Source of the DNA: Nemertoderma westbladi
Lineage: Eukaryota; Animalia; Xenacoelomorpha
Assembly (NCBI GenBank): GCA_032718475.1
Contig: JAUCBJ010009115.1
Location: forward strand, 41,087 to 105,086
Direction: 5' to 3'
Length of the DNA: 64,000 bases
The notes below the pieces were generated by a model. It searched no databases, had not been told where the DNA came from, and saw only the letters and a list, made by a program, of their open reading frames with translations. Below, piece by piece: positions 9,257-64,000 of the stretch (positions within the stretch are counted from its first letter, which is position 1; the number at the start of each line of letters is the position of its first letter). The position numbers and the translations under genes are program-made.

Positions 9257-9330
9257 TACATATACATATAAAATATTTACTTATACATTACAAATTTACT
9301 TATACATTAAACTACAAAATTATCTTACAG

Positions 9331-17458: not shown

Positions 17459-17618
17459 TGTCGGCAGCTAGAGGAAGTGGGCGGTGTAGTTCCCTCCCAG
17501 ACACCATTCTGTCTCAGAGACACCTCCACCTCCGGTGGATCTACGCCCATGTTCACTCCAATAACCGCTATACATCGCCTGAACACTTCAGTGGATGAGG
17601 TCTTTAGTTACCCCACAG
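17459..17618 (+). CDS. JAKMIP: Coding exon E (CRQLEEVGGVVPSQTPFCLRDTSTSGGSTPMFTPITAIHRLNTSVDEVFSYPT)
   Basis: Acceptor TTTCCCCCAATAG (AG 17457-17458), 53 codons + 1 nt, donor CAG|GTTAGT. It is a GC-richer island. The phase 0 start continues the heptad pattern YINQL-CRQLEE and the phase 1 end matches exon F. Confidence 0.75.
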
Positions 17619-19997: not shown

Positions 19998-20221
19998 TTG
20001 ACCATCCAAGGCCATACCACTTGTCTCCAGGGACCAGTAGGCGGAGGGGCGGCAGTAGGTCCAGGTCCCGTTCGCCCATGGTAACCGGTAAACCAAAACT
20101 GCCAACACAACCCATTACTATGGTGGACGTTGAAAAAGAAATGCTCCGACTAAAAAACCACTTCCATGATCAATTCGCGACCATACAAGAAATAACAGAT
20201 ACAATTCCAGCAGACCCTGAT
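19998..20221 (+). CDS. JAKMIP: Coding exon F (VDHPRPYHLSPGTSRRRGGSRSRSRSP...EKEMLRLKNHFHDQFATIQEITDTIPADPD), drawn to the first of many possible donors
   Basis: Acceptor CTTTCAG (AG 19996-19997); phase 1 start agrees with exon E (G+TT = Val); first donor GAT|GTAAGT at 20222. The 3' boundary is ambiguous because the donor is tandemly repeated. Confidence 0.8.
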
Positions 20222-23200
20222 GTAAGTATACAAGAAATAACAGATACAATACCGGCAGACCCTGATGTAAGTATACAAGAAATAACAGATACAATAACAG
20301 CAGACCCTGATGTAAGTATACAAGAAATAACAGATACAATAACAGCAGACCCTGATGTAAGTATACAAGAAATAACAGATACAATAACAGCAGACCCTGA
20401 TGTAAGTATACAAGAAATAACAGATACAATAACAGCAGACCCTGATGTAAGTATACAAGAAATAACAGATACAATAACAGCAGACCCTGATGTAAGTATA
20501 CAAGAAATAACAGATACAATACCAGCAGACCCTGATGTAAGTATACAAGAAATAACAGATACAATACCAGCAGACCCTGATGTAAGTATACAAGAAATAA
20601 CAGATACAATAACAGCAGACCCTGATGTAAGTATACAAGAAATAACAGATACAATACCGGCAGACCCTGATGTAAGTATGCAAGAAATAACAGATACAAT
20701 AACAGCAGACCCTGATGTAAGTATACAAGAAATAACAGATACAATAACAGCAGACCCTGATGTAAGTATACAAGAAATAACAGATACAATAACAGCAGAC
20801 CCTGATGTAAGTATACAAGAAATAACAGATACAATAACAGCAGACCCTGATGTAAGTATACAAGAAATAACAGATACAATAACAGCAGACCCTGATGTAA
20901 GTATACAAGAAATAACAGATACAATACCAGCAGACCCTGATGTAAGTATACAAGAAATAACAGATACAATACCAGCAGACCCTGATGTAAGTATACAAGA
21001 AATAACAGATACAATAACAGCAGACCCTGATGTAAGTATACAAGAAATAACAGATACAATAACAGCAGACCCTGATGTAAGTATACAAGAAATAACGGAT
21101 ACAATACCGGCAGACCCTGATGTAAGTATACAAGAAATAACAGATACAATACCGGCAGACCCTGATGTAAGTATACAAGAAATAACGGATATAATAACAG
21201 CAGACCCTGATGTAAGTATACAAGAAATAACAGATACAATACCAGCAGACCCTGATGTAAGTATACAAGAAATAACGGATACAATACCGGCAGACCCTGA
21301 TGTAAGTATACAAGAAATAACGGATACAATACCGGCAGACCCTGATGTAAGTATACAAGAAATAACAGATACAATACCGGCAGACCCTGATGTAAGTATA
21401 CAAGAAATAGCAGATACAATACCAGCAGACCTTGATGTAAGTATACAAGAAATAACAGATACAATAACAGCAGACCCTGATGTAAGTATACAAGAAATAA
21501 CAGATACAATAACAGCAGACCCTGATGTAAGTATACAAGAAATAACAGATACAATACCAGCAGACCCTGATGTAAGTATACAAGAAATAACAGATACAAT
21601 ACCGGCAGACCCTGATGTAAGTATACAAGAAATAACGGATACAATACCGGCAGACCCTGATGTAAGTATACAAGAAATAACAGATACAATACCGGCAGAC
21701 CCTGATGTAAGTATACAAGAAATAACAGATACAATACCAGCAGACCTTGATGTAAGTATACAAGAAATAACAGATACAATAACAGCAGACCCTGATGTAA
21801 GTATACAAGAAATAACAGATACAATAACAGCAGACCCTGATGTAAGTATACAAGAAATAACAGATACAATACCAGCAGACCCTGATGTAAGTATACAAGA
21901 AATAACAGATACAATACCGGCAGACCCTGATGTAAGTATACAAGAAATAACGGATACAATACCGGCAGACCCTGATGTAAGTATACAAGAAATAACAGAT
22001 ACAATACCGGCAGACCCTGATGTAAGTATACAAGAAATAGCAGATACAATACCAGCAGACCTTGATGTAAGTATACAAGAAATAACAGATACAATAACAG
22101 CAGACCCTGATGTAAGTATACAAGAAATAACAGATACAATAACAGCAGACCCTGATGTAAGTATACAAGAAATAACAGATACAATACCAGCAGACCCTGA
22201 TGTAAGTATACAAGAAATAACAGATACAATACCGGCAGACCCTGATGTAAGTATACAAGAAATAACGGATACAATACCGGCAGACCCTGATGTAAGTATA
22301 CAAGAAATAACAGATACAATACCGGCAGACCCTGATGTAAGTATACAAGAAATAACAGATACAATACCAGCAGACCTTGATGTAAGTATACAAGAAATAA
22401 CAGATACAATAACAGCAGACCCTGATGTAAGTATACAAGAAATAACAGATACAATAACAGCAGACCCTGATGTAAGTATACAAGAAATAACAGATACAAT
22501 ACCAGCAGACCCTGATGTAAGTATACAAGAAATAACAGATACAATACCGGCAGACCCTGATGTAAGTATACAAGAAATAACGGATACAATACCGGCAGAC
22601 CCTGATGTAAGTATACAAGAAATAACAGATACAATAACAGCAGACCCTGATGTAAGTATACAAGAAATAACAGATACAATACCAGCAGAAACTGATGTAA
22701 GTATACAAGAAATAACACATACAATAACAGCAGACCCTGATGTAAGTATACAAGAAATAACAGATACAATACCAGCAGACCCTGATGTAAGTATACAAGA
22801 AATAACAGATACAATAACAGCAGACCCTGATGTAAGTATACAAGAAATAACAGATACAATACCAGCAGACCCTGATGTAAGTATACAAGAAATAACAGAT
22901 ACAATAACAGCAGACCCTGATGTAAGTATACAAGAAATAACAGATATAATAACAGCAGACCCTGATGTAAGTATACAAGAAATAAAAGATACAATAACAG
23001 CAGACCCTGATGTAAGTATACAAGAAATAACAGATACAATACCAGCAGACCCTGATGTAAGTATACAAGAAATAACAGATACAATTCCAGCAGAAACTGA
23101 TGTAAGTATACAAGAAATAACAGATACAATAACAGCAGACCCTGATGTAAGTATACAAGAAATAACAGATACAATACCAGCAGACCCTGATGTAAGTATA

Positions 23201-26200
23201 CAAGAAATAACAGATACAATACCAGCAGAAACTGATGTAAGTATACAAGAAATAACAGATACAATAACAGCAGACCCTGATGTAAGTATACAAGAAATAA
23301 CAGATACAATACCAGCAGACCCTGATGTAAGTATACAAGAAATAACAGATATAATAACAGCAGACCCTGATGTAAGTATACAAGAAATAACAGATACAAT
23401 ACCAGCAGACCCTGATGTAAGTATACAAGAAATAACAGATATAATAACAGCAGACCCTGATGTAAGTATACAAGAAATAACAGATACAATACCAGCAGAC
23501 CCTGATGTAAGTATACAAGAAATAACAGATACAATACCAGCAGACCCTGATGTAAGTATACAAGAAATAACAGATACAATACCGGCAGACCCTGATGTAA
23601 GTATACAAGAAATAACAGATACAATAACAGCAGACCCTGATGTAAGTATACAAGAAATAACAGATACAATACCGGCAGACCCTGATGTAAGTATACAAGA
23701 AATAACAGATACAATAACAGCAGACCCTGATGTAAGTATACAAGAAATAACAGATACAATACCGGCAGACCCTGATGTAAGTATACAAGAAATAACAGAT
23801 ACAATAACAGCAGACCCTGATTTAAGTATACAAGAAATAACAGATACAATACCAGCAGACCCTGATGTAAGTATACAAGAAATAACAGATACAATTCCAG
23901 CAGAAACTGATGTAAGTATACAAGAAATAACAGATACAATAACAGCAGACCCTGATGTAAGTATACAAGAAATAACAGATACAATACCAGCAGACCCTGA
24001 TGTAAGTATACAAGAAATAACAGATACAATACCAGCTGAAACTGATGTAAGTATACAAGAAATAACAGATACAATAACAGCAGACCCTGATGTAAGTATA
24101 CAAGAAATAACAGATACAATACCGGCAGACCCTGATGTAAGTATACAAGAAATAACAGATATAATAACAGCAGACCCTGATGTAAGTATACAAGAAATAA
24201 CAGATACAATACCGGCAGACCCTGATGTAAGTATACAAGAAATAACAGATACAATACCAGCAGACCCTGATGTAAGTATACAAGAAATAACAGATATAAT
24301 AACAGCAGACCCTGATGTAAGTATACAAGAAATAACAGATATAATAACAGCAGACCCTGATGTAAGTATACAAGAAATAAAAAATACAATAACAGCAGAC
24401 CCTGATGTAAGTATACAAGAAATAACAGATACAATACCAGCAGAAACTGATGTAAGTATACAAGAAATAACAGATACAATAACAGCAGACCCTGATGTAA
24501 GTATACAAGAAATAACAGATACAATACCAGCAGACCCTGATGTAAGTATACAAGAAATAACAGATATAATAACAGCAGACCCTGATGTAAGTATACAAGA
24601 AATAACAGATACAATAACAGCAGACCCTGATGTAAGTATACAAGAAATAACAGATACAATAACAGCAGACCCTGATGTAAGTATACAAGAAATAACAGAT
24701 ACAATAACAGCAGACCCTGATGTAAGTATACAAGAAATAACAGATACAATACCGGCAGACCCTGATGAAAGTATACAAGAAATAACAGATACAATAACAG
24801 CAGACCCTGATGTAAGTATACAAGAAATAACAGATATAATAACAGCAGACCCTGATGTAAGTATACAAGAAATAACAAATACAATAACAGCAGACCCTGA
24901 TGTAAGTATACAAGAAATAACAGATACAATACCGGCAGACCCTGATGTAAGTATACAAGAAATAACGGATACAATACCGGCAGACCCTGATGTAAGTATA
25001 CAAGAAATAACAGATACAATACCGGCAGACCCTGATGTAAGTATACAAGAAATAACAGATACAATACCAGCAGACCTTGATGTAAGTATACAAGAAATAA
25101 CAGATACAATAACAGCAGACCCTGATGTAAGTATACAAGAAATAACAGATACAATAACAGCAGACCCTGATGTAAGTATACAAGAAATAACAGATACAAT
25201 ACCAGCAGACCCTGATGTAAGTATACAAGAAATAACAGATACAATACCGGCAGACCCTGATGTAAGTATACAAGAAATAACGGATACAATACCGGCAGAC
25301 CCTGATGTAAGTATACAAGAAATAACAGATACAATAACAGCAGACCCTGATGTAAGTATACAAGAAATAACAGATACAATACCAGCAGAAACTGATGTAA
25401 GTATACAAGAAATAACACATACAATAACAGCAGACCCTGATGTAAGTATACAAGAAATAACAGATACAATACCAGCAGACCCTGATGTAAGTATACAAGA
25501 AATAACAGATACAATAACAGCAGACCCTGATGTAAGTATACAAGAAATAACAGATACAATACCAGCAGACCCTGATGTAAGTATACAAGAAATAACAGAT
25601 ACAATAACAGCAGACCCTGATGTAAGTATACAAGAAATAACAGATATAATAACAGCAGACCCTGATGTAAGTATACAAGAAATAAAAGATACAATAACAG
25701 CAGACCCTGATGTAAGTATACAAGAAATAACAGATACAATACCAGCAGACCCTGATGTAAGTATACAAGAAATAACAGATACAATTCCAGCAGAAACTGA
25801 TGTAAGTATACAAGAAATAACAGATACAATAACAGCAGACCCTGATGTAAGTATACAAGAAATAACAGATACAATACCAGCAGACCCTGATGTAAGTATA
25901 CAAGAAATAACAGATACAATACCAGCAGAAACTGATGTAAGTATACAAGAAATAACAGATACAATAACAGCAGACCCTGATGTAAGTATACAAGAAATAA
26001 CAGATACAATACCAGCAGACCCTGATGTAAGTATACAAGAAATAACAGATATAATAACAGCAGACCCTGATGTAAGTATACAAGAAATAACAGATACAAT
26101 ACCAGCAGACCCTGATGTAAGTATACAAGAAATAACAGATATAATAACAGCAGACCCTGATGTAAGTATACAAGAAATAACAGATACAATACCAGCAGAC

Positions 26201-29200
26201 CCTGATGTAAGTATACAAGAAATAACAGATACAATACCAGCAGACCCTGATGTAAGTATACAAGAAATAACAGATACAATACCGGCAGACCCTGATGTAA
26301 GTATACAAGAAATAACAGATACAATAACAGCAGACCCTGATGTAAGTATACAAGAAATAACAGATACAATACCGGCAGACCCTGATGTAAGTATACAAGA
26401 AATAACAGATACAATAACAGCAGACCCTGATGTAAGTATACAAGAAATAACAGATACAATACCGGCAGACCCTGATGTAAGTATACAAGAAATAACAGAT
26501 ACAATAACAGCAGACCCTGATTTAAGTATACAAGAAATAACAGATACAATACCAGCAGACCCTGATGTAAGTATACAAGAAATAACAGATACAATTCCAG
26601 CAGAAACTGATGTAAGTATACAAGAAATAACAGATACAATAACAGCAGACCCTGATGTAAGTATACAAGAAATAACAGATACAGTACCAGCAGACCCTGA
26701 TGTAAGTATACAAGAAATAACAGATACAATACCAGCTGAAACTGATGTAAGTATACAAGAAATAACAGATACAATAACAGCAGACCCTGATGTAAGTATA
26801 CAAGAAATAACAGATACAATACCGGCAGACCCTGATGTAAGTATACAAGAAATAACAGATATAATAACAGCAGACCCTGATGTAAGTATACAAGAAATAA
26901 CAGATACAATACCGGCAGACCCTGATGTAAGTATACAAGAAATAACAGATACAATACCAGCAGACCCTGATGTAAGTATACAAGAAATAACAGATATAAT
27001 AACAGCAGACCCTGATGTAAGTATACAAGAAATAACAGATATAATAACAGCAGACCCTGATGTAAGTATACAAGAAATAAAAAATACAATAACAGCAGAC
27101 CCTGATGTAAGTATACAAGAAATAACAGATACAATACCAGCAGAAACTGATGTAAGTATACAAGAAATAACAGATACAATAACAGCAGACCCTGATGTAA
27201 GTATACAAGAAATAACAGATACAATACCAGCAGACCCTGATGTAAGTATACAAGAAATAACAGATATAATAACAGCAGACCCTGATGTAAGTATACAAGA
27301 AATAACAGATACAATAACAGCAGACCCTGATGTAAGTATACAAGAAATAACAGATACAATAACAGCAGACCCTGATGTAAGTATACAAGAAATAACAGAT
27401 ACAATAACAGCAGACCCTGATGTAAGTATACAAGAAATAACAGATACAATACCGGCAGACCCTGATGTAAGTATACAAGAAATAACAGATACAATAACAG
27501 CAGACCCTGATGTAAGTATACAAGAAATAACAGATACAATACCAGCAGACCCTGATGTAAGTATACAAGAAATAACAAATACAATAACAGCAGACCCTGA
27601 TGTAAGTATACAAGAAATAACAGATACAATACCAGCAGAAACTGATGTAAGTATACAAAAAATAACAGATACAATAACAGCAGACCCTGATGTATGTATA
27701 CAAGAAATAACAGATACAATACCAGCAGACCCTGATGTAAGTATACAAGAAATAACAGATACAATACCGGCAGACCCTGATGTAAGTATACAAGAAATAA
27801 CAGATACAATACCAGCAGACCCTGATGTAAGTATACAAGAAATAACAGATACAATACCAGCAGACCCTGATGTAAGTATACAAGAAATAACAGATACAAT
27901 ACCGGCAGACCCTGATGTAAGTATACAAGAAATAACAGATACAATACCAGCAGACCCTGATGTAAGTATACAAGAAATAACAGATACAATACCAGCAGAC
28001 CATGATGTAAGTATACAAGAAATAACAGATACAATAACAGCAGACCCTGATGTAAGTATACAAGAAATAACAGATACAATTCCAGCAGACCTTGATGTAA
28101 GTATACAAGAAATAACAGATACAATACCAGCAGACCTTGATGTAAGTATACAAGAAATAACAGATACAATAACAGCAGACCCTGATGTAAGTATACAAGA
28201 AATAACAGATACAATACCAGCAGACCCTGATGTAAGTATACAAGAAATAACAGATACAATACCGGCAGACCCTGATGTAAGTATACAAGAAATAACGGAT
28301 ACAATACCGGCAGACCCTGATGTAAGTATACAAGAAATAACAGATACAATACCGGCAGACCCTGATGTAAGTATACAAGAAATAACAGATACAATACCAG
28401 CAGACCTTGATGTAAGTATACAAGAAATAACAGATACAATAACAGCAGACCCTGATGTAAGTATACAAGAAATAACAGATACAATAACAGCAGACCCTGA
28501 TGTAAGTATACAAGAAATAACAGATACAATACCAGCAGACCCTGATGTAAGTATACAAGAAATAACAGATACAATACCGGCAGACCCTGATGTAAGTATA
28601 CAAGAAATAACGGATACAATACCGGCAGACCCTGATGTAAGTATACAAGAAATAACAGATACAATACCGGCAGACCCTGATGTAAGTATACAAGAAATAA
28701 CAGATACAATAACAGCAGACCCTGATGTAAGTATACAAGAAATAACAGATACAATACCGGCAGACCCTGATGAAAGTATACAAGAAATAACAGATACAAT
28801 ACCGGCAGACCCTGATGAAAGTATACAAGAAATAACAGACACAATACCGGCAGACCCTGATGTAAGTATACAAGAAATAACAGCAGACCCTGATGTAAGT
28901 ATACAAGAAATAACAGATTACCAGCAGACCCTGATGTAAGTATACAAGAAATAACAGATACAATACCGGCAGACCCTGATGTAAGTATACAAGAAATAAC
29001 AGATACAATACCGGCAGACCCTGATGTAAGTATACAAGAAATAACAGATACAATACCAGCAGACCTTGATGTAAGTATACAAGAAATAACAGATACAATA
29101 ACAGCAGACCCTGATGTAAGTATACGAGAAATAACAGATACAATAACAGCAGACCCTGATGTAAGTATACAAGAAATAACAGATACAATACCAGCAGACC

Positions 29201-32200
29201 CTGATGTAAGTATACAAGAAATAACAGATACAATACCGGCAGACCCTGATGTAAGTATACAAGAAATAACGGATACAATACCGGCAGACCCTGATGTAAG
29301 TATACAAGAAATAACAGATACAATACCGGCAGACCCTGATGTAAGTATACAAGAAATAACAGATACAATAACAGCAGACCCTGATGTAAGTATACAAGAA
29401 ATAACAGATACAATACCGGCAGACCCTGATGAAAGTATACAAGAAATAACAGATACAATACCGGCAGACCCTGATGAAAGTATACAAGAAATAACAGACA
29501 CAATACCGGCAGACCCTGATGTAAGTATACAAGAAATAACAGCAGACCCTGATGTAAGTATACAAGAAATAACAGATTACCAGCAGACCCTGATGTAAGT
29601 ATACAAGAAATAACAGATACAATACCGGCAGACCCTGATGTAAGTATACAAGAAATAACAGATACAATAACAGCAGACCCTGATGTAAGTATACAAGAAA
29701 TAACAGATTACCAGCAGACCCTGATGTAAGTATACAAGAAATAACAGATACAATACCGGCAGACCCTGATGTAAGTATACAAGAAATAACAGACACAATA
29801 CCGGCAGACCCTGATGTAAGTATACAAGAAATAACAGATACAATAACAGCAGACCCTGATGTAAGTATACAAGAAATAACAGATTACCAGCAGACCCTGA
29901 TGTAAGTATACAAGAAATAACAGATACAATAACAGCAGACCCTGATGTAAGTATACAAGAAATAACAGATACAATACCAGCAGAAACTGATGTAAGTATA
30001 CAAGAAATAACACATACAATAACAGCAGACCCTGATGTAAGTATACAAGAAATAACAGATACAATACCAGCAGACCCTGATGTAAGTATACAAGAAATAA
30101 CAGATACAATAACAGCAGACCCTGATGTAAGTATACAAGAAATAACAGATACAATACCAGCAGACCCTGATGTAAGTATACAAGAAATAACAGATACAAT
30201 AACAGCAGACCCTGATGTAAGTATACAAGAAATAACAGATATAATAACAGCAGACCCTGATGTAAGTATACAAGAAATAAAAGATACAATAACAGCAGAC
30301 CCTGATGTAAGTATACAAGAAATAACAGATACAATACCAGCAGACCCTGATGTAAGTATACAAGAAATAACAGATACAATTCCAGCAGAAACTGATGTAA
30401 GTATACAAGAAATAACAGATACAATAACAGCAGACCCTGATGTAAGTATACAAGAAATAACAGATACAATACCAGCAGACCCTGATGTAAGTATACAAGA
30501 AATAACATATACAATACCAGCAGAAACTGATGTAAGTATACAAGAAATAACAGATACAATAACAGCAGACCCTGATGTAAGTATACAAGAAATAACAGAT
30601 ACAATACCAGCAGACCCTGATGTAAGTATACAAGAAATAACAGATATAATAACAGCAGACCCTGATGTAAGTATACAAGAAATAACAGATACAATACCAG
30701 CAGACCCTGATGTAAGTATACAAGAAATAACAGATATAATAACTGCAGACCCTGATGTAAGTATACAAGAAATAACAGATACAATACCAGCAGACCCTGA
30801 TGTAAGTATACAAGAAATAACAGATACAATACCAGCAGACCCTGATGTAAGTATACAAGAAATAACAGATACAATACCGGCAGACCCTGATGTAAGTATA
30901 CAAGAAATAACAGATACAATAACAGCAGACCCTGATGTAAGTATACAAGAAATAACAGATACAATACCGGCAGACCCTGATGTAAGTATACAAGAAATAA
31001 CAGATACAATAACAGCAGACCCTGATGTAAGTATACAAGAAATAACAGATACAATACCGGCAGACCCTGATGTAAGTATACAAGAAATAACAGATACAAT
31101 AACAGCAGACCCTGATTTAAGTATACAAGAAATAACAGATACAATACCAGCAGACCCTGATGTAAGTATACAAGAAATAACAGATACAATTCCAGCAGAA
31201 ACTGATGTAAGTATACAAGAAATAACAGATACAATAACAGCAGACCCTGATGTAAGTATACAAGAAATAACAGATACAATACCAGCAGACCCTGATGTAA
31301 GTATACAAGAAATAACAGATACAATACCAGCTGAAACTGATGTAAGTATACAAGAAAAAACAGATACTATAACAGCAGACCCTGATGTAAGTATACAAGA
31401 AATAACAGATACAATACCGGCAGACCCTGATGTAAGTATACAAGAAATAACAGATATAATAACAGCAGACCCTGATGTAAGTATACAAGAAATAACAGAT
31501 ACAATACCGGCAGACCCTGATGTAAGTATACAAGAAATAACAGATACAATACCAGCAGACCCTGATGTAAGTATACAAGAAATAACAGATATAATAACAG
31601 CAGACCCTGATGTAAGTATACAAGAAATAACAGATATAATAACAGCAGACCCTGATGTAAGTATACAAGAAATAAAAAATACAATAACAGCAGACCCTGA
31701 TGTAAGTATACAAGAAATAACAGATACAATACCAGCAGAAACTGATGTAAGTATACAAGAAATAACAGATACAATAACAGCAGACCCTGATGTAAGTATA
31801 CAAGAAATAACAGATACAATACCAGCAGACCCTGATGTAAGTATACAAGAAATAACAGATATAATAACAGCAGACCCTGATGTAAGTATACAAGAAATAA
31901 CATATACAATAACAGCAGACCCTGATGTAAGTATACAAGAAATAACAGATACAATAACAGCAGACCCTGATGTAAGTATACAAGAAATAACAGATACAAT
32001 AACAGCAGACCCTGATGTAAGTATACAAGAAATAACAGATACAATACCGGCAGACCCTGATGTAAGTATACAAGAAATAACAGATACAATAACAGCAGAC
32101 CCTGATTTAAGTATACAAGAAATAACAGATACAATACCAGCAGACCCTGATGTAAGTATACAAGAAATAACAAATACAATAACAGCAGACCCTGATGTAA

Positions 32201-38200: not shown

Positions 38201-41200
38201 CGGATACAATACCGGCAGACCCTGATGTAAGTATACAAGAAATAACAGATACAATACCGGCAGACCCTGATGTAAGTATACAAGAAATAACGGATACAAT
38301 ACCGGCAGACCCTGATGTAAGTATACAAGAAATAACAGATACAATACCAGCAGACCCTGATGTAAGTATACAAGAAATAACAGATATAATAACAGCAGAC
38401 CCTGATGTAAGTATACAAGAAATAACAGATACAATACCGGCAGACCCTGATGTAAGTATACAAGAAATAACAGATATAATAACAGCAGACCCTGATGTAA
38501 GTATACAAGAAATAACAGATACAATAACAGCAGACCCTGATGTAAGTATACAAGAAATAACAGATACAATACCGGCAGACCCTGATGTAAGTATACAAGA
38601 AATAACAGATACAATAACAGCAGACCCTGATGTAAGTATACAAGGAATAACAGATACAATACCAGCAGACCCTGATGTAAGTATACAAGAAATAACAGAT
38701 ACAATACCAGCAGACCCTGATGTAAGTATACAAGAAATAACAGATACAATAACAGCAGACCCTGATGTAAGTATACAAGAAATAACAGATACAATACCAG
38801 CAGACCCTGATGTAAGTATACAAGAAATAACAGATACAATAACAGCAGACCCTGATGTAAGTATACAAGAAATAACAGATACAATACCGGCAGACCCTGA
38901 TGTAAGTATACAAGAAATAACAGATACAATAACAGCAGACCCTGATGTAAGTATACAAGAAATAACAGATACAATACCAGCAGACCCTGATGTAAGTATA
39001 CAAGAAATAACAAATACAATAACAGCAGACCCTGATGTAAGTATACAAGAAATAACAGATACAATACCAGCAGACCCTGATGTAAGTATACAAGAAATAA
39101 CAGATATAATAACAGCAGACCCTAATGTAAGTATACAAGAAATAACGGATACAATTCCAGCAGACCCTGATGTAAGTATACAAGAAATAACGGATACAAT
39201 TCCAGCAGACCTTGATGTAAGTATACAAGAAATAACAGATACAATAACAGCAGACCCTGATGTAAGTATACAAGAAATAACAGATACAATACCGGCAGAC
39301 CCTGATGTAAGTATACAAGAAATAACAGATACAATAACAGCAGACCCTGATGTAAGTATACAAGAAATAACGGATACAATACCGGCAGACCCTGATGTAA
39401 GTATACAAGAAATAACAGATACAATACCAGCAGACCCTGATGTAAGTATACAAGAAATAACAGATACAATACCAGCAGACCCTGATGTAAGTATACAAGA
39501 AATAACAGATACAATACCGGCAGACCCTGATGTAAGTATACAAGAAATAACAGATACAATACCGGCAGACCCTGATGTAAGTATACAAGAAATAACAGAT
39601 ACAATAACAGCAGACCCTGATGTAAGTATACAAGAAATAACAGATACAATAACAGCAGACCCTGATGTAAGTATACAAGAAATAACAGATACAATACCGG
39701 CAGACCCTGATGTAAGTATACAAGAAATAACAGATACAATAACAGCAGACCCTGATGTAAGTATACAAGAAATAACAGATATAATAACAGCAGACCCTGA
39801 TGTAAGTATACAAGAAATAACAGATACAATACCGGCAGACCCTGATGTAAGTATACAAGGAATAACAGATACAATACCGGCAGACCCTGATGTAAGTATA
39901 CAAGAAATAACAGATACAATACCAGCAGACCCTGATGTAAGTATACAAGAAATAACAGATACAATAACAGCAGACCCTGATGTAAGTATACAAGAAATAA
40001 CAGATATAATAACAGCAGACCCTGATGTAAGTATACAAGAAATAACAGATACAATAACAGCAGACCCTGATGTAAGTATACAAGAAATAACAGATACAAT
40101 ACCAGCAGACCCTGATGTAAGTATACAAGAAATAACAGATATAATAACAGCAGACCCTGATGTAAGTATACAAGAAATAACAGATACAATAACAGCAGAC
40201 CCTGATGTAAGTATACAAGAAATAACAGATACAATACCGGCAGACCCTGATGTAAGTATACAAGAAATAACAGATACAATAACAGCAGACCCTGATGTAA
40301 GTATACAAGAAATAACAGATATAATAACAGCAGACCCTGATGTAAGTATACAAGAAATAACAGATACAATACCGGCAGACCCTGATGTAAGTATACAAGG
40401 AATAACAGATACAATAACAGCAGACCCTGATGTAAGTATACAAGAAATAACGGATACAATACCGGCAGACCCTGATGTAAGTATACAAGAAATAACGGAT
40501 ACAATACCGGCAGACCCTGATGTAAGTATACAAGAAATAACAGATACAATACCGGCAGACCCTGATGTAAGTATACAAGAAATAACAGATACAATACCAG
40601 CAGACCCTGATGTAAGTATACAAGGAATAACAGATACAATAACAGCAGACCCTGATGTAAGTATACAAGAAATAACAGATACAATAACAGCAGACCCTGA
40701 TGTAAGTATACAAGAAATAACAGATACAATACCGGCAGACCCTGATGTAAGTATACAAGAAATAACAGATACAATACCGGCAGACCCTGATGTAAGTATA
40801 CAAGAAATAACAGATACAATACCGGCAGACCCTGATGTAAGTATACAAGAAATAACAGATACAATAACAGCAGACCCTGATGTAAGTATACAAGAAATAA
40901 CAGATACAATAACAGCAGACCCTGATGTAAGTATACAAGGAATAACAGATACAATACCAGCAGACCATGATGTAAGTATACAAGAAATAACAGATATAAT
41001 AACAGCAGACCCTGATGTAAGTATACAAGAAATAACAGATACAATACCAGCAGACCCTGATGTAAGTATACAAGGAATAACAGATACAATACCAGCAGAC
41101 CATGATGTAAGTATACAAGAAATAACAGATATANNNNNNNNNNNNNNNNNNNNNNNNNNNNNNNNNNNNNNNNNNNNNNNNNNNNNNNNNNNNNNNNNNN

Positions 41201-44200
41201 NNNNNNNNNNNNNNNNNNNNNNNNNNNNNNNNNCAGCAGACCCTGATGTAAGTATACAAGAAATAACAGATACAATACCGGCAGACCCTGATGTAAGTAT
41301 ACAAGGAATAACAGATACAATAACAGCAGACCCTGATGTAAGTATACAAGAAATAACAGATACAATACCGGCAGACCCTGATGTAAGTATACAAGAAATA
41401 ACAGATACAATACCGGCAGACCCTGATGTAAGTATACAAGAAATAACAGATACAATAACAGCAGACCCTGATGTAAGTATACAAGAAATAACAGATACAA
41501 TACCAGCAGACCCTGATGTAAGTATACAAGGAATAACGGATACAATAACAGCAGACCCTGATGTAAGTATACAAGAAATAACAGATACAATACCGGCAGA
41601 CCCTGATGTAAGTATACAAGGAATAACAGATACAATACCAGCAGACCCTGATGTAAGTATACAAGAAATAACAGATACAATACCGGCAGACCCTGATGTA
41701 AGTATACAAGGAATAACAGATACAATAACAGCAGACCCTGATGTAAGTATACAAGAAATAACAGATACAATACCGGCAGACCCTGATGTAAGTATACAAG
41801 GAATAACGGATACAATAACAGCAGACCCTGATGTAAGTATACAAGAAATAACAGATACAATACCAGCAGACCCTGATGTAAGTATACAAGAAATAACAGA
41901 TACAATAACAGCAGACCCTGATGTAAGTATACAAGAAATAACAGATACAATACCGGCAGACCCTGATGTAAGTATACAAGAAATAACGGATACAATACCG
42001 GCAGACCCTGATGTAAGTATACAAGAAATAACAGATACAATACCGGCAGACCCTGATGTAAGTATACAAGAAATAACAGATACAATACCGGCAGACCCTG
42101 ATGTAAGTATACAAGGAATAACAGATACAATACCAGCAGACCCTGATGTAAGTATACAAGAAATAACAGATACAATAACAGCAGACCCTGATGTAAGTAT
42201 ACAAGAAATAACAGATACAATACCGGCAGACCCTGATGTAAGTATACAAGAAATAACAGATACAATACCGGCAGACCCTGATGTAAGTATACAAGGAATA
42301 ACAGATACAATACCAGCAGACCCTGATGTAAGTATACAAGAAATAACGGATACAATACCGGCAGACCCTGATGTAAGTATACAAGGAATAACAGATACAA
42401 TACCAGCAGACCCTGATGTAAGTATACAAGAAATAACAGATACAATACCGGCAGACCCTGATGTAAGTATACAAGAAATAACAGATACAATACCGGCAGA
42501 CCCTGATGTAAGTATACAAGAAATAACAGATACAATACCGGCAGACCCTGATGTAAGTATACAAGGAATAACAGATACAATACCAGCAGACCCTGATGTA
42601 AGTATACAAGAAATAACAGATACAATACCGGCAGACCCTGATGTAAGTATACAAGAAATAACAGATACAATACCGGCAGACCCTGATGTAAGTATACAAG
42701 AAATAACAGATACAATACCGGCAGACCCTGATGTAAGTATACAAGGAATAACAGATACAATAACAGCAGACCCTGATGTAAGTATACAAGAAATAACAGA
42801 TACAATACCAGCAGACCCTGATGTAAGTATACAAGAAATAAAAGATACAATAACAGCAGACCCTGATGTAAGTATACAAGAAATAACAGATACAATACCG
42901 GCAGACCCTGATGTAAGTATACAAGAAATAACAGATACAATACCGGCAGACCCTGATGTAAGTATACAAGAAATAAAAGATACAATAACAGCAGACCCTG
43001 ATGTAAGTATACAAGAAATAACAGATACAATACCGGCAGACCCTGATGTAAGTATACAAGAAATAAAAGATACAATAACAGCAGACCCTGATGTAAGTAT
43101 ACAAGAAATAACAGATATAATACCGGCAGACCCTGATGTAAGTATACAAGAAATAACAGATACAATACCGGCAGACCCTGATGTAAGTATACAAGAAATA
43201 AAAGATACAATAACAGCAGACCCTGATGTAAGTATACAAGAAATAACAGATACAATACCGGCAGACCCTGATGTAAGTATACAAGAAATAAAAGATACAA
43301 TAACAGCAGACCCTGATGTAAGTATACAAGAAATAACAGATACAATACCGGCAGACCCTGATGTAAGTATACAAGAAATAACAGATACAATACCGGCAGA
43401 CCCTGATGTAAGTATACAAGAAATAACAGATACAATACCGGCAGACCCTGATGTAAGTATACAAGAAATAACAGATACAATACCGGCAGACCCTGATGTA
43501 AGTATACAAGAAATAACAGATACAATAACAGCAGACCCTGATGTAAGTATACAAGAAATAACAGATACAATACCGGCAGACCCTGATGTAAGTATACAAG
43601 AAATAACAGATACAATACCGGCAGACCCTGATGTAAGTATACAAGAAATAACAGATACAATACCGGCAGACCCTGATGTAAGTATACAAGAAATAACAGA
43701 TACAATACCGGCAGACCCTGATGTAAGTATACAAGGAATAACAGATACAATACCGGCAGACCCTGATGTAAGTATACAAGAAATAACAGATACAATACCG
43801 GCAGACCCTGATGTAAGTATACAAGAAATAACAGATACAATACCGGCAGACCCTGATGTAAGTATACAAGGAATAACAGATACAATACCGGCAGACCCTG
43901 ATGTAAGTATACAAGAAATAACAGATACAATACCAGCAGACCCTGATGTAAGTATACAAGAAATAACAGATACAATACCGGCAGACCCTGATGTAAGTAT
44001 ACAAGAAATAACAGATACAATACCGGCAGACCCTGATGTAAGTATACAAGAAATAACAGATACAATACCGGCAGACCCTGATGTAAGTATACAAGAAATA
44101 ACAGATACAATACCGGCAGACCCTGATGTAAGTATACAAGGAATAACAGATACAATACCGGCAGACCCTGATGTAAGTATACAAGAAATAACAGATACAA

Positions 44201-53200: not shown

Positions 53201-56200
53201 TACCGGCAGACCCTGATGTAAGTATACAAGGAATAACAGATACAATAACAGCAGACCCTGATGTAAGTATACAAGGAATAACAGATACAATACCGGCAGA
53301 CCCTGATGTAAGTATACAAGAAATAACAGATACAATACCAGCAGACCCTGATGTAAGTATACAAGAAATAACAGATACAATACCGGCAGACCCTGATGTA
53401 AGTATACAAGGAATAACAGATACAATAACAGCAGACCCTGATGTAAGTATACAAGAAATAACAGATACAATACCGGCAGACCCTGATGTAAGTATACAAG
53501 AAATAACAGATACAATACCAGCAGACCCTGATGTAAGTATACAAGAAATAACAGATACAATAACAGCAGACCCTGATGTAAGTATACAAGGAATAACAGA
53601 TACAATAACAGCAGACCCTGATGTAAGTATACAAGAAATAACAGATACAATACCAGCAGACCCTGATGTAAGTATACAAGAAATAACAGATACAATACCG
53701 GCAGACCCTGATGTAAGTATACAAGAAATAACAGATACAATACCAGCAGACCCTGATGTAAGTATACAAGAAATAACAGATACAATAACAGCAGACCCTG
53801 ATGTAAGTATACAAGAAATAACAGATTACCAGCAGACCCTGATGTAAGTATACAAGAAATAACAGATACAATACCAGCAGACCCTGATGTAAGTATACAA
53901 GAAATAACAGATACAATAACAGCAGACCCTGATGTAAGTATACAAGGAATAACAGATACAATAACAGCAGACCCTGATGTAAGTATACAAGAAATAACAG
54001 ATACAATACCAGCAGACCCTGATGTAAGTATACAAGAAATAACAGATACAATACCAGCAGACCCTGATGTAAGTATACAAGGAATAACAGATACAATAAC
54101 AGCAGACCCTGATGTAAGTATACAAGAAATAACAGATACAATACCGGCAGACCCTGATGTAAGTATACAAGAAATAACAGATACAATAACAGCAGACCCT
54201 GATGTAAGTATACAAGGAATAACAGATACAATAACAGCAGACCCTGATGTAAGTATACAAGAAATAACAGATACAATACCAGCAGACCCTGATGTAAGTA
54301 TACAAGAAATAACAGATACAATACCAGCAGACCCTGATGTAAGTATACAAGAAATAACAGATACAATACCAGCAGACCCTGATGTAAGTATACAAGAAAT
54401 AACAGATACAATACCGGCAGACCCTGATGTAAGTATACAAGAAATAACAGATACAATACCGGCAGACCCTGATGTAAGTATACAAGAAATAACAGATACA
54501 ATAACAGCAGACCCTGATGTAAGTATACAAGAAATAACAGATACAATACCGGCAGACCCTGATGTAAGTATACAAGAAATAACAGATACAATACCGGCAT
54601 AACCTGATGTAAGTATACAAGAAATAACAGATACAATACCGGCATAACCTGATGTAAGTATACAAGAAATAACGGATACAATACCGGCAGACCCTGATGT
54701 AAGTATACAAGAAATAACAGATACAATACCGGCAGACCCTGATGTAAGTATACAAGAAATAACAGATACAATACCGGCATAACCTGATGTAAGTATACAA
54801 GAAATAACGGATACAATACCGGCAGACCCTGATGTAAGTATACAAGAAATAACAGATACAATACCGGCAGACCCTGATGTAAGTATACAAGAAATAACGG
54901 ATACAATAACAGCAGACCCTGATGTAAGTATACAAGAAATAACAGATACAATACCGGCAGACCCTGATGTAAGTATACAAGAAATAACAGATACAATACC
55001 GGCAGACCCTGATGTAAGTATACAAGAAATAACAGATACAATAACAGCAGACCCTGATGTAAGTATACAAGAATTAACAGATACAATACCGGCAGAACCT
55101 GATGTAAGTATACAAGAAATAACAGATACAATACCAGCAGACCCTGATGTAAGTATACAAGAAATAACAGATACAATAACAGCAGACCCTGATGTAAGTA
55201 TACAAGAAATAACAGATACAATACCGGCAGACCCTGATGTAAGTATACAAGAAATAACAGATACAATAACAGCAGACCCTGATGTAAGTATACAAGAAAT
55301 AACAGATACAATAACAGCAGACCCTGATGTAAGTATACAAGAATTAACAGATACAATACCGGCAGACCCTGATGTAAGTATACAAGAAATAACAGATACA
55401 ATAACAGCAGACCCTGATGTAAGTATACAAGAAATAACAGATACAATACCAGCAGACCCTGATGTAAGTATACAAGAATTAACAGATACAATACCGGCAG
55501 ACCCTGATGTAAGTATACAAGAAATAACAGATACAATAACAGCAGACCCTGATGTAAGTATACAAGAAATAACAGATACAATACCAGCAGACCCTGATGT
55601 AAGTATACAAGAAATAAAAGATACAATACCAGCAGACCCTGATGTAAGTATACAAGAAATAACAGATACAATTCCAGCAGACCTTGATGTAAGTATACAA
55701 GAAATAACAGATACAATACCGGCATAACCTGATGTAAGTATACAAGAAATAACGGATACAATACCGGCAGACCCTGATGTAAGTATACAAGAAATAACAG
55801 ATACAATACCGGCAGACCCTGATGTAAGTATACAAGAAATAACAGATAAAATAACAGCAGACCTTGATGTAAGTATACAAGAAATAACAGATACAATACC
55901 GGCATAACCTGATGTAAGTATACAAGAAATAACAGATACAATAACAGCAGACCCTGATGTAAGTATATAAGAAATAACAGATACAATACCAGCAGACCCT
56001 GATGTAAGTATACAAGAAATAAAAGATACAATAACAGCAGACCCTGATGTAAGTATACAAGAAATAACAGATACAATTCCAGCAGACCTTGATGTAAGTA
56101 TACAAGAAATAACAGATACAATACCGGCATAACCTGATGTAAGTATACAAGAAATAACGGATACAATACCGGCAGACCCTGATGTAAGTATACAAGAAAT

Positions 56201-59200
56201 AACAGATACAATACAGGCAGACCCTGATGTAAGTATACAAGAAATAACAGATACAATTCCAGCAGACCTTGATGTAAGTATACAAGAAATAACAGATACA
56301 ATACCGGCATAACCTGATGTAAGTATACAAGAAATAACGGATACAATACCGGCAGACCCTGATGTAAGTATACAAGAAATAACAGATACAATACCGGCAG
56401 ACCCTGATGTAAGTATACAAGAAATAACAGATAAAATAACAGCAGACCCTGATGTAAGTATACAAGAAATAACAGATACAATACCGGCAGACCCTGATGT
56501 AAGTATACAAGAAATAACAGATACAATACCGGCAGACCCTGATGTAAGTATACAAGAAATAACGGATACAATAACAGCAGACCCTGATGTAAGTATACAA
56601 GAAATAACAGATACAATACCGGCAGACCCTGATGTAAGTATACAAGAAATAACAGATACAATACCAGCAGACCCTGATGTAAGTATACAAGAAATAACAG
56701 ATACAATACCAGCAGACCCTGATGTAAGTATACAAGGAATAACAGATACAATACCGGCAGACCCTGATGTAAGTATACAAGAAATAACAGATACAATACC
56801 AGCAGACCCTGATGTAAGTATACAAGAAATAACAGATACAATACCGGCAGACCCTGATGTAAGTATACAAGGAATAACAGATACAATAACAGCAGACCCT
56901 GATGTAAGTATACAAGAAATAACAGATACAATAACAGCAGACCCTGATGTAAGTATACAAGAAATAACAGATACAATACCGGCAGACCCTGATGTAAGTA
57001 TACAAGAAATAACAGATACAATACCAGCAGACCCTGATGTAAGTATACAAGGAATAACAGATACAATACCGGCAGACCCTGATGTAAGTATACAAGAAAT
57101 AACAGATACAATACCAGCAGACCCTGATGTAAGTATACAAGAAATAACAGATACAATACCGGCAGACCCTGATGTAAGTATACAAGGAATAACAGATACA
57201 ATAACAGCAGACCCTGATGTAAGTATACAAGGAATAACAGATACAATACCGGCAGACCCTGATGTAAGTATACAAGAAATAACAGATACAATACCAGCAG
57301 ACCCTGATGTAAGTATACAAGAAATAACAGATACAATACCGGCAGACCCTGATGTAAGTATACAAGGAATAACAGATACAATAACAGCAGACCCTGATGT
57401 AAGTATACAAGAAATAACAGATACAATACCGGCAGACCCTGATGTAAGTATACAAGAAATAACAGATACAATACCAGCAGACCCTGATGTAAGTATACAA
57501 GAAATAACAGATACAATACCGGCAGACCCTGATGTAAGTATACAAGAAATAACAGATACAATAACAGCAGACCCTGATGTAAGTATACAAGAAATAACAG
57601 ATACAATACCGGCAGACCCTGATGTAAGTATACAAGAAATAACAGATACAATACCAGCAGACCCTGATGTAAGTATACAAGAAATAACAGATACAATAAC
57701 AGCAGACCCTGATGTAAGTATACAAGGAATAACAGATACAATAACAGCAGACCCTGATGTAAGTATACAAGAAATAACAGATACAATACCAGCAGACCCT
57801 GATGTAAGTATACAAGAAATAACAGATACAATACCGGCAGACCCTGATGTAAGTATACAAGAAATAACAGATACAATACCGGCAGACCCTGATGTAAGTA
57901 TACAAGAAATAACAGATACAATACCGGCAGACCCTGATGTAAGTATACAAGAAATAACAGATACAATACCAGCAGACCCTGATGTAAGTATACAAGAAAT
58001 AACAGATACAATACCAGCAGACCCTGATGTAAGTATACAAGAAATAACAGATACAATACCGGCAGACCCTGATGTAAGTATACAAGAAATAACAGATACA
58101 ATACCGGCAGACCCTGATGTAAGTATACAAGGAATAACAGATACAATAACAGCAGACCCTGATGTAAGTATACAAGAAATAACAGATACAATACCGGCAG
58201 ACCCTGATGTAAGTATACAAGAAATAACAGATACAATACCGGCAGACCCTGATGTAAGTATACAAGGAATAACAGATACAATACCAGCAGACCCTGATGT
58301 AAGTATACAAGAAATAACAGATACAATACCGGCAGACCCTGATGTAAGTATACAAGAAATAACAGATACAATACCGGCAGACCCTGATGTAAGTATACAA
58401 GAAATAACAGATACAATACCGGCAGACCCTGATGTAAGTATACAAGAAATAACAGATACAATACCGGCAGACCCTGATGTAAGTATACAAGAAATAACAG
58501 ATACAATAACAGCAGACCCTGATGTAAGTATACAAGGAATAACAGATACAATACCAGCAGACCCTGATGTAAGTATACAAGAAATAACAGATACAATACC
58601 AGCAGACCCTGATGTAAGTATACAAGAAATAACAGATACAATACCGGCAGACCCTGATGTAAGTATACAAGAAATAACAGATACAATACCGGCAGACCCT
58701 GATGTAAGTATACAAGAAATAACAGATACAATACCGGCAGACCCTGATGTAAGTATACAAGGAATAACAGATACAATAACAGCAGACCCTGATGTAAGTA
58801 TACAAGGAATAACAGATACAATAACAGCAGACCCTGATGTAAGTATACAAGAAATAACAGATACAATACCAGCAGACCCTGATGTAAGTATACAAGAAAT
58901 AACAGATACAATACAGCAGACCCTGATGTAAGTATACAAGAAATAACAGATACAATACCGGCAGACCCTGATGTAAGTATACAAGAAATAACAGATACAA
59001 TAACAGCAGACCCTGATGTAAGTATACAAGAAATAACAGATACAATACCAGCAGACCCTGATGTAAGTATACAAGAAATAACAGATACAATAACAGCAGA
59101 CCCTGATGTAAGTATACAAGGAATAACAGATACAATACCAGCAGACCCTGATGTAAGTATACAAGAAATAACAGATACAATAACAGCAGACCCTGATGTA

Positions 59201-62200
59201 AGTATACAAGAAATAACAGATACAATACCAGCAGACCCTGATGTAAGTATACAAGGAATAACAGATACAATACCGGCAGACCCTGATGTAAGTATACAAG
59301 AAATAACAGATACAATACCAGCAGACCCTGATGTAAGTATACAAGAAATAACAGATACAATACCGGCAGACCCTGATGTAAGTATACAAGGAATAACAGA
59401 TACAATAACAGCAGACCCTGATGTAAGTATACAAGAAATAACAGATACAATAACAGCAGACCCTGATGTAAGTATACAAGAAATAACAGATACAATACCG
59501 GCAGACCCTGATGTAAGTATACAAGAAATAACAGATACAATACCAGCAGACCCTGATGTAAGTATACAAGGAATAACAGATACAATACCGGCAGACCCTG
59601 ATGTAAGTATACAAGAAATAACAGATACAATACCAGCAGACCCTGATGTAAGTATACAAGAAATAACAGATACAATACCGGCAGACCCTGATGTAAGTAT
59701 ACAAGGAATAACAGATACAATAACAGCAGACCCTGATGTAAGTATACAAGGAATAACAGATACAATACCGGCAGACCCTGATGTAAGTATACAAGAAATA
59801 ACAGATACAATACCAGCAGACCCTGATGTAAGTATACAAGAAATAACAGATACAATACCGGCAGACCCTGATGTAAGTATACAAGGAATAACAGATACAA
59901 TAACAGCAGACCCTGATGTAAGTATACAAGGAATAACAGATACAATACCGGCAGACCCTGATGTAAGTATACAAGAAATAACAGATACAATACCAGCAGA
60001 CCCTGATGTAAGTATACAAGAAATAACAGATACAATACCGGCAGACCCTGATGTAAGTATACAAGGAATAACAGATACAATAACAGCAGACCCTGATGTA
60101 AGTATACAAGAAATAACAGATACAATACCGGCAGACCCTGATGTAAGTATACAAGAAATAACAGATACAATACCAGCAGACCCTGATGTAAGTATACAAG
60201 AAATAACAGATACAATAACAGCAGACCCTGATGTAAGTATACAAGGAATAACAGATACAATAACAGCAGACCCTGATGTAAGTATACAAGAAATAACAGA
60301 TACAATACCAGCAGACCCTGATGTAAGTATACAAGAAATAACAGATACAATACCGGCAGACCCTGATGTAAGTATACAAGAAATAACAGATACAATACCA
60401 GCAGACCCTGATGTAAGTATACAAGAAATAACAGATACAATAACAGCAGACCCTGATGTAAGTATACAAGAAATAACAGATACAATACCAGCAGACCCTG
60501 ATGTAAGTATACAAGAAATAACAGATACAATACCGGCAGACCCTGATGTAAGTATACAAGAAATAACAGATACAATAACAGCAGACCCTGATGTAAGTAT
60601 ACAAGAAATAACAGATACAATAACAGCAGACCCTGATGTAAGTATACAAGAAATAACAGATACAATACCAGCAGACCCTGATGTAAGTATACAAGAAATA
60701 ACAGATACAATACCAGCAGACCCTGATGTAAGTATACAAGAAATAACAGATACAATACCAGCAGACCCTGATGTAAGTATACAAGAAATAACAGATACAA
60801 TACCGGCAGACCCTGATGTAAGTATACAAGAAATAACAGATACAATACCGGCAGACCCTGATGTAAGTATACAAGAAATAACAGATACAATAACAGCAGA
60901 CCCTGATGTAAGTATACAAGAAATAACAGATACAATACCGGCAGACCCTGATGTAAGTATACAAGAAATAACAGATACAATACCGGCATAACCTGATGTA
61001 AGTATACAAGAAATAACAGATACAATACCGGCATAACCTGATGTAAGTATACAAGAAATAACGGATACAATACCGGCAGACCCTGATGTAAGTATACAAG
61101 AAATAACAGATACAATACCGGCAGACCCTGATGTAAGTATACAAGAAATAACAGATACAATACCGGCATAACCTGATGTAAGTATACAAGAAATAACGGA
61201 TACAATACCGGCAGACCCTGATGTAAGTATACAAGAAATAACAGATACAATACCGGCAGACCCTGATGTAAGTATACAAGAAATAACGGATACAATAACA
61301 GCAGACCCTGATGTAAGTATACAAGAAATAACAGATACAATACCGGCAGACCCTGATGTAAGTATACAAGAAATAACAGATACAATACCGGCAGACCCTG
61401 ATGTAAGTATACAAGAAATAACAGATACAATAACAGCAGACCCTGATGTAAGTATACAAGAATTAACAGATACAATACCGGCAGAACCTGATGTAAGTAT
61501 ACAAGAAATAACAGATACAATACCAGCAGACCCTGATGTAAGTATACAAGAAATAACAGATACAATAACAGCAGACCCTGATGTAAGTATACAAGAAATA
61601 ACGGATACAATACCGGCAGACCCTGATGTAAGTATACAAGAAATAACAGATACAATAACAGCAGACCCTGATGTAAGTATACAAGAAATAACAGATACAA
61701 TAACAGCAGACCCTGATGTAAGTATACAAGAATTAACAGATACAATACCGGCAGACCCTGATGTAAGTATACAAGAAATAACAGATACAATAACAGCAGA
61801 CCCTGATGTAAGTATACAAGAAATAACAGATACAATACCAGCAGACCCTGATGTAAGTATACAAGAATTAACAGATACAATACCGGCAGACCCTGATGTA
61901 AGTATACAAGAAATAACAGATACAATAACAGCAGACCCTGATGTAAGTATATAAGAAATAACAGATACAATACCAGCAGACCCTGATGTAAGTATACAAG
62001 AAATAAAAGATACAATACCAGCAGACCCTGATGTAAGTATACAAGAAATAACAGATACAATTCCAGCAGACCTTGATGTAAGTATACAAGAAATAACAGA
62101 TACAATACCGGCATAACCTGATGTAAGTATACAAGAAATAACGGATACAATACCGGCAGACCCTGATGTAAGTATACAAGAAATAACAGATACAATACCG

Positions 62201-64000
62201 GCAGACCCTGATGTAAGTATACAAGAAATAACAGATAAAATAACAGCAGACCCTGATGTAAGTATACAAGAAATAACAGATACAATTCCAGCAGACCTTG
62301 ATGTAAGTATACAAGAAATAACAGATACAATACCGGCAGACCCTGATGTAAGTATACAAGAAATAACAGATATAATAACAGCAGACCCTGATGTAAGTAT
62401 ACAAGAAATAAAAGATACAATTCCAGCAGACCCTGATGTAAGTATACAAGAAATAACAGATACAATACCGGCAGACCCTGATGTAAGTATACAAGAAATA
62501 ACAGATACAATACCAGCAGACCCTGATGTAAGTATACAAGAAATAACAGATACAATACCAGCAGACGCTGATGTAAGTATACAAGAAATAACAGATACAA
62601 TACCGGCAGACCCTGATGTAAGTATACAAGAAATAACAGATACAATAACAGCAGACCCTGATGTAAGTATACAAGAAATAACAGATACAATAACAGCAGA
62701 CCCTGATGTAAGTATACAAGAAATAACAGATACAATAACAGCAGACCCTGATGTAAGTATACAAGAAATAACAGATACAATACCAGCAGACCCTGATGTA
62801 AGTATACAAGAAATAACAGATACAATAACAGCAGACCCTGATGTAAGTATACAAGAAATAACAGATACAATAACAGCAGACCCTGATGTAAGTATACAAG
62901 AAATAACAGATACAATACCAGCAGACCCTGATGTAAGTATACAAGAAATAACAGATACAATACCGGCAGACCCTGATGTAAGTATACAAGAAATAACAGA
63001 TACAATAACAGCAGACCCTGATGTAAGTATACAAGAAATAACAGATACAATAACAGCAGACCCTGATGTAAGTATACAAGAAATAACAGATACAATAACA
63101 GCAGACCCTGATGTAAGTATACAATAAATAACAGATACAATACCGGCAGACCCTGATGTAAGTATACAAGAAATAACAGATACAATAACAGCAGACCCTG
63201 ATGTAAGTATACAAGAAATAACAGATACAATACCAGCAGACCCTGATGTAAGTATACAAGAATTAACAGATACAATACCGGCAGACCCTGATGTAAGTAT
63301 ACAAGAAATAACAGATACAATAACAGCAGACCCTGATGTAAGTATACAAGAAATAACAGATACAATACCAGCAGACCCTGATGTAAGTATACAAGAAATA
63401 ACAGATACAATACCAGCAGACCCTGATGTAAGTATACAAGAAATAACAGATACAATTCCAGCAGACCCTGATGTAAGTATACAAGAAATAACAGATACAA
63501 TACCAGCAGACCCTGATGTAAGTATACAAGAAATAACGGATACAATACCGGCAGACCCTGATGTAAGTATACAAGAAATAACAGATACAATACCGGCAGA
63601 CCCTGATGTAAGTATACAAGAAATAACAGATACAATAACAGCAGACCCTGATGTAAGTATACAAGAAATAACAGATACAATTCCAGCAGACCCTGATGTA
63701 AGTATACAAGAAATAACAGATACAATACCGGCAGACCCTGATGTAAGTATACAAGAAATAACAGATACAATAACAGCAGACCCTGATGTAAGTATACAAG
63801 AAATAACAGATACAATTCCAGCAGACCCTGATGTAAGTATACAAGAAATAACAGATACAATACCGGCAGACCCTGATGTAAGTATACAAGAAATAACAGA
63901 TACAATACCAGCAGACCCTGATGTAAGTATACAAGAAATAACAGATACAATACCAGCAGACCCTGATGTAAGTATACAAGAAATAACAGATACAATACCG
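20183..64000 (+). repeat. 45-bp satellite, ~970 units visible, consensus ATACAAGAAATAACAGATACAATAMCRGCAGACCCTGAT|GTAAGT (last 39 nt of exon F + first 6 intron nt)
   Basis: The 45-nt period is directly visible. The first unit begins inside the exon at 20183, and the array runs past the window end and across an N gap. Confidence 0.99.
41134..41233. other. Assembly gap (100 N) inside the 45-bp array
   Basis: A run of exactly 100 N, the usual placeholder for a gap of unknown size. Confidence 0.97.

Follow-up and report, generated by a model that had tools for sequence, protein, structure and literature searches.

A 64,000-nucleotide (nt) stretch of contig JAUCBJ010009115.1 from the xenacoelomorph Nemertoderma westbladi (assembly GCA_032718475.1, positions 41,087 to 105,086 of the forward strand), here called the window, carries a predicted gene whose sixth predicted exon, exon F, appears to run directly into a very large tandem array. 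The array (20183..64000, plus strand) consists of about 974 units of 45 base pairs (bp), each made of 39 nt of the predicted exon end followed by the splice donor GTAAGT, and it is still open at the right edge of the window. It is probable that this is a neutral, donor-spanning minisatellite that was born in place from the end of exon F and its 5' splice site, and that it forms a giant intron whose first donor is the one used. Arrays of this kind are already known; the size of this one is its sole exceptional feature.

The array itself, described in a first-pass annotation as a satellite of more than 43 kilobases (kb) with some 970 tandem donors, is real. Tandem Repeats Finder reports a single array (20183-63999; period 45, 974.6 copies, 95% matches), and tiling divides it into 973 units, 964 of which are 45 nt long (two containing N), together with five of 41 nt, two of 33 nt, one of 44 nt, and one of 51 nt over an assembly gap. 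When the units are compared with the column consensus, their mean identity is 97.4%, and this value is even along the array. A 23-nt piece of the unit has 966 matches within the window, the first at 20183, and none in 100 shuffles. In addition, the 45 nt that precede the array match the unit at just 10 of 45 positions, and consequently the left edge is sharp. The junction quoted in the first-pass annotation, TTC GCG ACC / ATA CAA ... GAT / GTAAGT, is present in the sequence as written there. The accompanying statement that every later unit repeats the 39 exon nt plus GTAAGT holds for most units but not for all: the GAT/GTAAGT end is kept in 944 of the 962 full-length, N-free units, while nine have lost the GT and some units have other lengths. 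Exact GTAAGT hexamers number 955. To that description it can be added that the 45-mer unit consists of 15 open codons that continue the frame of exon F. Given that a gap of 100 N (41134..41233) lies inside the array and that the array runs off the window, its length of 43.8 kb is neither exact nor an upper limit. The exact variant found in unit 1 occurs only six times. As three of these copies fall within the final 600 nt of the window (63434-63794), the far end of the array may be near. Among the 43 distinct substitutions found in 20183-64000, C>A and G>T changes together account for 14 and A>T and T>A changes for 10, with transversions outnumbering transitions.

In the gene model, unit 1 (20183..20227, plus strand) would supply the last 13 codons of predicted exon F (20183-20221) and the likely authentic donor GTAAGT (20222-20227). 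Exon F (19998..20221, plus strand, 224 nt) has a ttttcag-type acceptor, a phase 1 start, a phase 0 end, and one open frame of three. Its boundaries, like those of the other exons, were picked by eye from splice signals and reading frame, and the gene is a model rather than a transcript; its six predicted exons with AG/GT ends join into 330 stop-free codons, while the other two frames contain 19 and 20 stops. Scored over 11 positions against the donor consensus, the unit-1 donor reaches 9 of 11, and the other five donors of the gene reach 6 to 9; the rival donors inside exon F are weaker (5 of 11 for ATG/GTAACC and 6 of 11 for CCG/GTAAAC). A small 3-periodic coding model was trained on exons A-E, with the intron background also serving as a training set. 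This model gives the 102-nt stretch that separates the rival donor from the array (20081-20182) a coding score of 0.15 in the exon frame versus -7.4 and -5.0 off frame; such a score is reached by 1.2% of 1,497 intronic windows, and only 14 of 4,966 are both stop-free and as high. Since the unit-1 donor is the strongest in exon F and 20081-20182 scores as coding-like, exon F likely runs into the array, and the 39 nt of the unit were presumably exon before they were amplified. A first unit that spans the exon-intron boundary fits the predicted gene model, with the composition of the 39 nt lying between exon and intron scores. The earlier proposal of a birth in place from the exon-intron junction is thus favored by the stop-free six-exon frame, the best donor in exon F, the coding-like stretch 20081-20182, and a second array that also starts on a donor; against it stands the fact that the 39 nt are not told from intron by their composition.

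That second donor-spanning array (1012..9256, plus strand; 274 units of 30 bp) lies in the same gene and has both ends visible. Its unit comprises the last 4 nt of exon A, GTAAAT, and 20 nt of intron; it begins on the exon A donor, its identity is 94.7%, and the GT is kept in 239 of 258 full units. It is followed by the unique 74-nt rest of intron A-B (9257..9330, plus strand), which ends in the acceptor of exon B, and the array makes up 99% of that intron. One 30-mer unit plus the 74-nt tail would be an intron of about 100 nt, and the neighboring introns are 125 and 109 nt. The 30-mer array serves as an internal control, in which the route proposed for the 45-mer can be seen at both of its ends. 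On the gene collapsed to 7,090 nt, the chance of a unit covering one of the six donors is 2.5% for the 30-mer and 3.7% for the 45-mer, values that were calculated post hoc. Read-through of the 30-mer meets a stop within unit 1. Four 30-mer units fold better than shuffles (z -2.45, 5 of 200).

As a whole, the 45-mer array is not coding. Stops (20 units) or frameshifts (six units) disrupt 26 of the 973 units, and they represent five alleles. The 43 distinct substitutions comprise 7 synonymous, 34 missense, and 2 nonsense changes, compared with 30, 103, and 2 of the 135 possible ones (p 0.46); both of the two possible one-step nonsense changes are present, and one change counted as missense gives a stop on a second variant background (11 units). 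Mucin-type coding exons with a variable number of tandem repeats (VNTR) consist of an in-frame repeat rich in T, P, D, and S. The present array differs from these in having stops, frameshifts, neutral substitutions, and a full splice donor in each unit. Furthermore, its frame is open from exon F through only 194 of the 973 units, and neither an excess of synonymous change nor a lack of nonsense alleles is seen, either in the open part (5 of 21 synonymous) or overall (7 of 43). The later units, which are presumably intronic, lack coding constraint, as would be expected of a minisatellite at an exon-intron boundary. Antisense coding was also considered and rejected. The minus-strand frames extend to 10,630 codons, but this length is uninformative because all three minus frames of the consensus unit are without stops.

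The splice signals of the array point in the same direction as an exon-intron boundary minisatellite, in that head-to-tail tandem units of minisatellite size reiterate the splice signal of the first. Of the 43 variants, 5 fall in the donor hexamer, which matches its share of the unit (6 of 45 positions); therefore, there is no sign that decoy donors have been either removed or kept. Within the array there is no AGGT, the longest pyrimidine run is 4, and the AG dinucleotides of the unit, which end at unit positions 7, 16, 28, 31, and 44, include none in frame with the donor (position 39). Consequently, the units can act neither as exons nor as ratchet points, nor can they form an intron by themselves. 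A recursive splicing (ratchet) site consists of a pyrimidine tract and an AG directly before GT, and with 0 AGGT and a longest pyrimidine run of 4, this possibility was rejected. An acceptor scan found no acceptor-like site in the array, although the scan, which found the acceptors of E and F but missed those of A-D, is weak when taken alone. Structural masking of the donors was not seen either, as RNAs of three units fold no better than shuffles (z -0.06 and -1.11). The array contains 27 AATAAA sequences, the first at 22981. U1 is reported, in the available text of PMC12216098, to suppress cryptic polyadenylation in human cells, and it might be speculated that the many donor-like sites aid transcriptional read-through past these AATAAA signals.

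Whether such arrays had been described before was left open by the first-pass annotation. They have been, and in the portions available of the reports concerned (PMC1557585, PMC3087553) the first donor dominates. Minisatellites whose first monomer spans an exon-intron boundary include the 37-bp VNTR of human F7 intron 7 and those of CBS intron 13, 6-16 intron 2, LMNB2, and PDGF intron 4 (PMC1557585). According to this source, F7, with 5-9 copies, uses the first donor only, and the finding that the most upstream donor wins has been shown experimentally for this gene; LMNB2 and PDGF use the authentic donor only, while CBS and 6-16, with up to 25 copies, use the authentic donor and two pseudo-sites. 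As in this group (PMC1557585), the donor here would be reiterated head to tail into the intron from a first monomer that is predicted to span the boundary. The copy number is 5-25 in that group, as opposed to about 974 in the 45-mer array. In addition, 4 nt of the F7 unit come from the exon and 33 from the intron, much as in the 30-mer array described above; in the 45-mer, 39 nt would be exonic and 6 intronic, and the frame is kept. Moreover, donor use has been measured in the F7 group, while for the 45-mer it is predicted from the sequence. In amphioxus, the "mirage" minisatellites of Adh3, BflGb6, BflGb9, troponin C, and PGBD5 leave splicing undisturbed (PMC3087553, PMC3902484, in the text available); the globin mirage has 3-6 units, compared with about 974 here. 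The Drosophila Y-linked genes, with their satellite-filled giant introns, likewise present a long tandem-repeat intron that has to be transcribed and spliced out (PMC11207136), but those introns reach hundreds of kb to Mb, and repeats derived from a gene's own donor are not described in the available part of that article. Finally, the AGGT model, in which introns are gained through tandem duplication (PMC4974935, in part), resembles the present case in that a tandem duplication touches splice signals. As an explanation it was rejected, since the array is without AGGT and every AG of the unit resumes out of frame with the donor, so that no self-made intron would result. No published array of this size was found in the main text of the open-access papers searched.

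These observations have led to the following model for the 45-mer array. Unit 1 continues the frame of predicted exon F and ends in GAT/GTAAGT, and a single tandem duplication across this exon-intron junction would have started the array. Because the first copy still ends in a donor, the coding sequence would have been left intact by that event. Subsequent growth proceeded by block duplication, presumably through unequal exchange or slippage. Block duplications are visible in the array, where 39 identical units are repeated 60 units apart (22208 and 24908) and 26 identical units are repeated 148 units apart (52639 and 59294). The copies have gathered stops, frameshifts, and amino-acid changes at neutral proportions. 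As judged from human F7 and the amphioxus mirages, the spliceosome would commit to the most upstream donor, giving a 224-nt exon, and later donors, without an acceptor of their own, would be spliced out as part of the intron. If donors 2-3 were used at a low level, the protein would gain 15 or 30 residues without a change of frame, and this would presumably be tolerated.

Several other explanations need to be weighed. One is that the array is partly coding, exon F being the last exon or using a far donor, such that about 194 copies of a 15-residue acidic Thr/Pro/Asp repeat would form a mucin-like tail of about 2,900 residues ending at 28937. The unit is indeed stop-free and in frame with exon F, and the read-through frame (20000..28939, plus strand) has 2,979 open codons, ending at the stop at 28937 after the first 41-nt frameshift unit. 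Furthermore, all 26 disrupted units lie beyond unit 194. However, 38% of intronic 45-nt windows (2,012 of 5,337) are stop-free in a given frame, and long clean runs are also found deeper in the array (194 units across the gap, 166, and 103). The frame is ended by the accident of a 4-nt deletion allele that is found five times, and no donor in the gene is better than that of unit 1. Among the distinct changes in the first 194 units themselves, 5 of 21 are synonymous, which is the neutral share (p 0.51), and radical swaps occur (T to K, D to H, V to E, and P to L). The disruptive alleles number just five. Of 30 harmless alleles with a similar copy number, 12 occur in the first 194 units; by simple arithmetic, the chance that all five disruptive alleles miss this part is about 0.08. 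A coding first part is thus unlikely. A related idea is that donor choice varies among the first donors, each step adding 15 residues, so that the array would set the length of an acidic linker, like a dial that keeps the frame. With donors 2 and 3, the exons would be stop-free, in frame, and 269 and 314 nt long, the donors are not hidden by RNA structure, and CBS and 6-16 do use two pseudo-sites besides the real one (PMC1557585, in the text available). On the other hand, the experiments with F7 show a strong preference for the first site (same source), there is no sign of selection on the donor hexamer or the peptide, and a dial would need a few units rather than 970. In addition, the length of the 30-mer is likewise divisible by 3, yet its first unit already contains a stop, so the gene is not built to keep the frame. 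A length dial therefore seems somewhat more doubtful even than a coding tail. In its boldest form, a use for the array would combine these ideas. A choice among the donors of the first 194 units, or translation continuing to 28937, would yield a protein ladder with 1 to about 194 acidic repeats, a splice-tuned protein ruler, while about 950 U1 sites would shield the 43-kb intron from its 27 AATAAA sequences; we regard this as improbable.

The remaining alternatives concern where the array came from and how well it has been assembled. The 45-mer could belong to a dispersed satellite, or be a mobile-element fragment, whose insertion within exon F or immediately behind it brought in a donor by chance; alternatively, exon F could end at 20080. 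The intermediate composition of the 39 nt would agree with such an origin, and the 63-mer array of the same gene has apparently grown inside mobile-element-like sequence. Nevertheless, the 45-mer array has its start precisely at a unit whose donor falls in phase 0 of the open frame, the stretch after 20080 is coding-like while the rival donor is weak, and the 30-mer array shows the in-place route in the same gene. Moreover, no copies of the 45-mer are found in the other 20 kb of the window, where the best match of the unit is 25 of 45. The 23-nt unit pattern is absent from viral and metagenome contigs, collections that are poor in animal DNA. This origin is the least probable of the explanations considered here. 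It is also unlikely, though slightly less so, that the array is real but that its length has been distorted by assembly, through collapse or through the joining of two haplotypes at the N gap. The gap within the array and the long, near-identical blocks would be compatible with this. However, the longest duplicated blocks are each confined to a single side of the gap, the sets of variants differ by region, and the 21 kb before the gap and the 23 kb after it are each far above published sizes.

The origin in place with use of the first donor consequently remains the explanation that we favor, but a number of points weigh against it. No downstream exon lies within the window, and we infer both the intronic status of the array and the use of its donors. 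The score of the 39 nt in unit 1 is intermediate between those of exons and introns, as 7% of 244 exon windows score as low and 31% of 1,078 intron windows as high, and the coding model is small, exon E having failed in leave-one-out. Neither stops nor frameshifts occur in the first 194 units, and a leading clean run of this length is found in only 2.0% of circular shifts. The work on F7 is mammalian and, in the text available (PMC1557585), concerns 5-9 sites. Finally, the host gene is without a homologue in any of the protein searches, so it could be a fast-evolving or a dead gene.

The other predicted exons of this gene, all on the plus strand, are exon A (910..1015; start at 910 or 912, with no earlier exons seen), exon B (9331..9435, 105 nt), exon C (9561..9836, 276 nt), exon D (9946..10065, 120 nt), and exon E (17459..17618, 160 nt), which has one open frame but is not supported by the small coding model. 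Five of the six predicted exons have exactly one open frame. By inspection, the predicted peptide is coiled-coil-looking and Arg/Ser-rich, and both exon C and exon F have Arg/Ser-rich stretches between predicted helical segments. Among longer proteins, none of the candidate homologues was confirmed, of which there were 107 for exon C, 74 for exon F, and 4 for exon D. A phmmer search with exon C over 1.84 billion representatives gave three matches, which were rejected as chance, since all are long repeat proteins in which the similarity is weak and patchy and does not reach the other exons. Pfam returned nothing at cut-off for the six exon peptides, the best ESM Atlas value was 0.89 for exon C (an unnamed entry) with nothing for exon F, and none of 599 pattern matches for exon F in metagenomes was confirmed. 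A search of 1-21000 against Rfam gave a single match, far below the gathering score, and ARAGORN gave none. At 42-139 there are three copies of a 32-mer with a palindromic core, which has a weak Rfam match far below cut-off.

A third large array, a 63-mer with 79 copies on the minus strand (12192-17175, with 17176-17270), neither covers nor touches a predicted splice site. It sits between a short A run and a motif that we take to be tRNA B-box-like, and it looks as if it had grown inside an element resembling a short interspersed nuclear element (SINE); ARAGORN and Rfam found nothing there (12192-17270). The units of all three large arrays are multiples of 3 (30, 45, and 63), and only the 45-mer is stop-free on the plus strand. 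Together, the arrays occupy about 57 of the 64 kb. In addition, 10997-11658 contains a tandem 146/291-bp repeat with a recurring CCGCTAGAGGGCG motif, presumably similar to a CTCF site. The motif is also present near 10870, with related forms at 19090-19250, and the repeat is probably a dispersed element.

In scale, the 45-mer array has about 40 times more reiterated donors than the largest published case with which it was compared (25 pseudo-sites). It would be a demanding natural test of the rule that the first donor wins and of exon definition. The presence of two donor-spanning arrays in one gene suggests that repeats derived from an exon survive if they bring along a donor of their own. 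Should donor choice prove variable and in frame, the array would represent a new way to vary the length of a protein.

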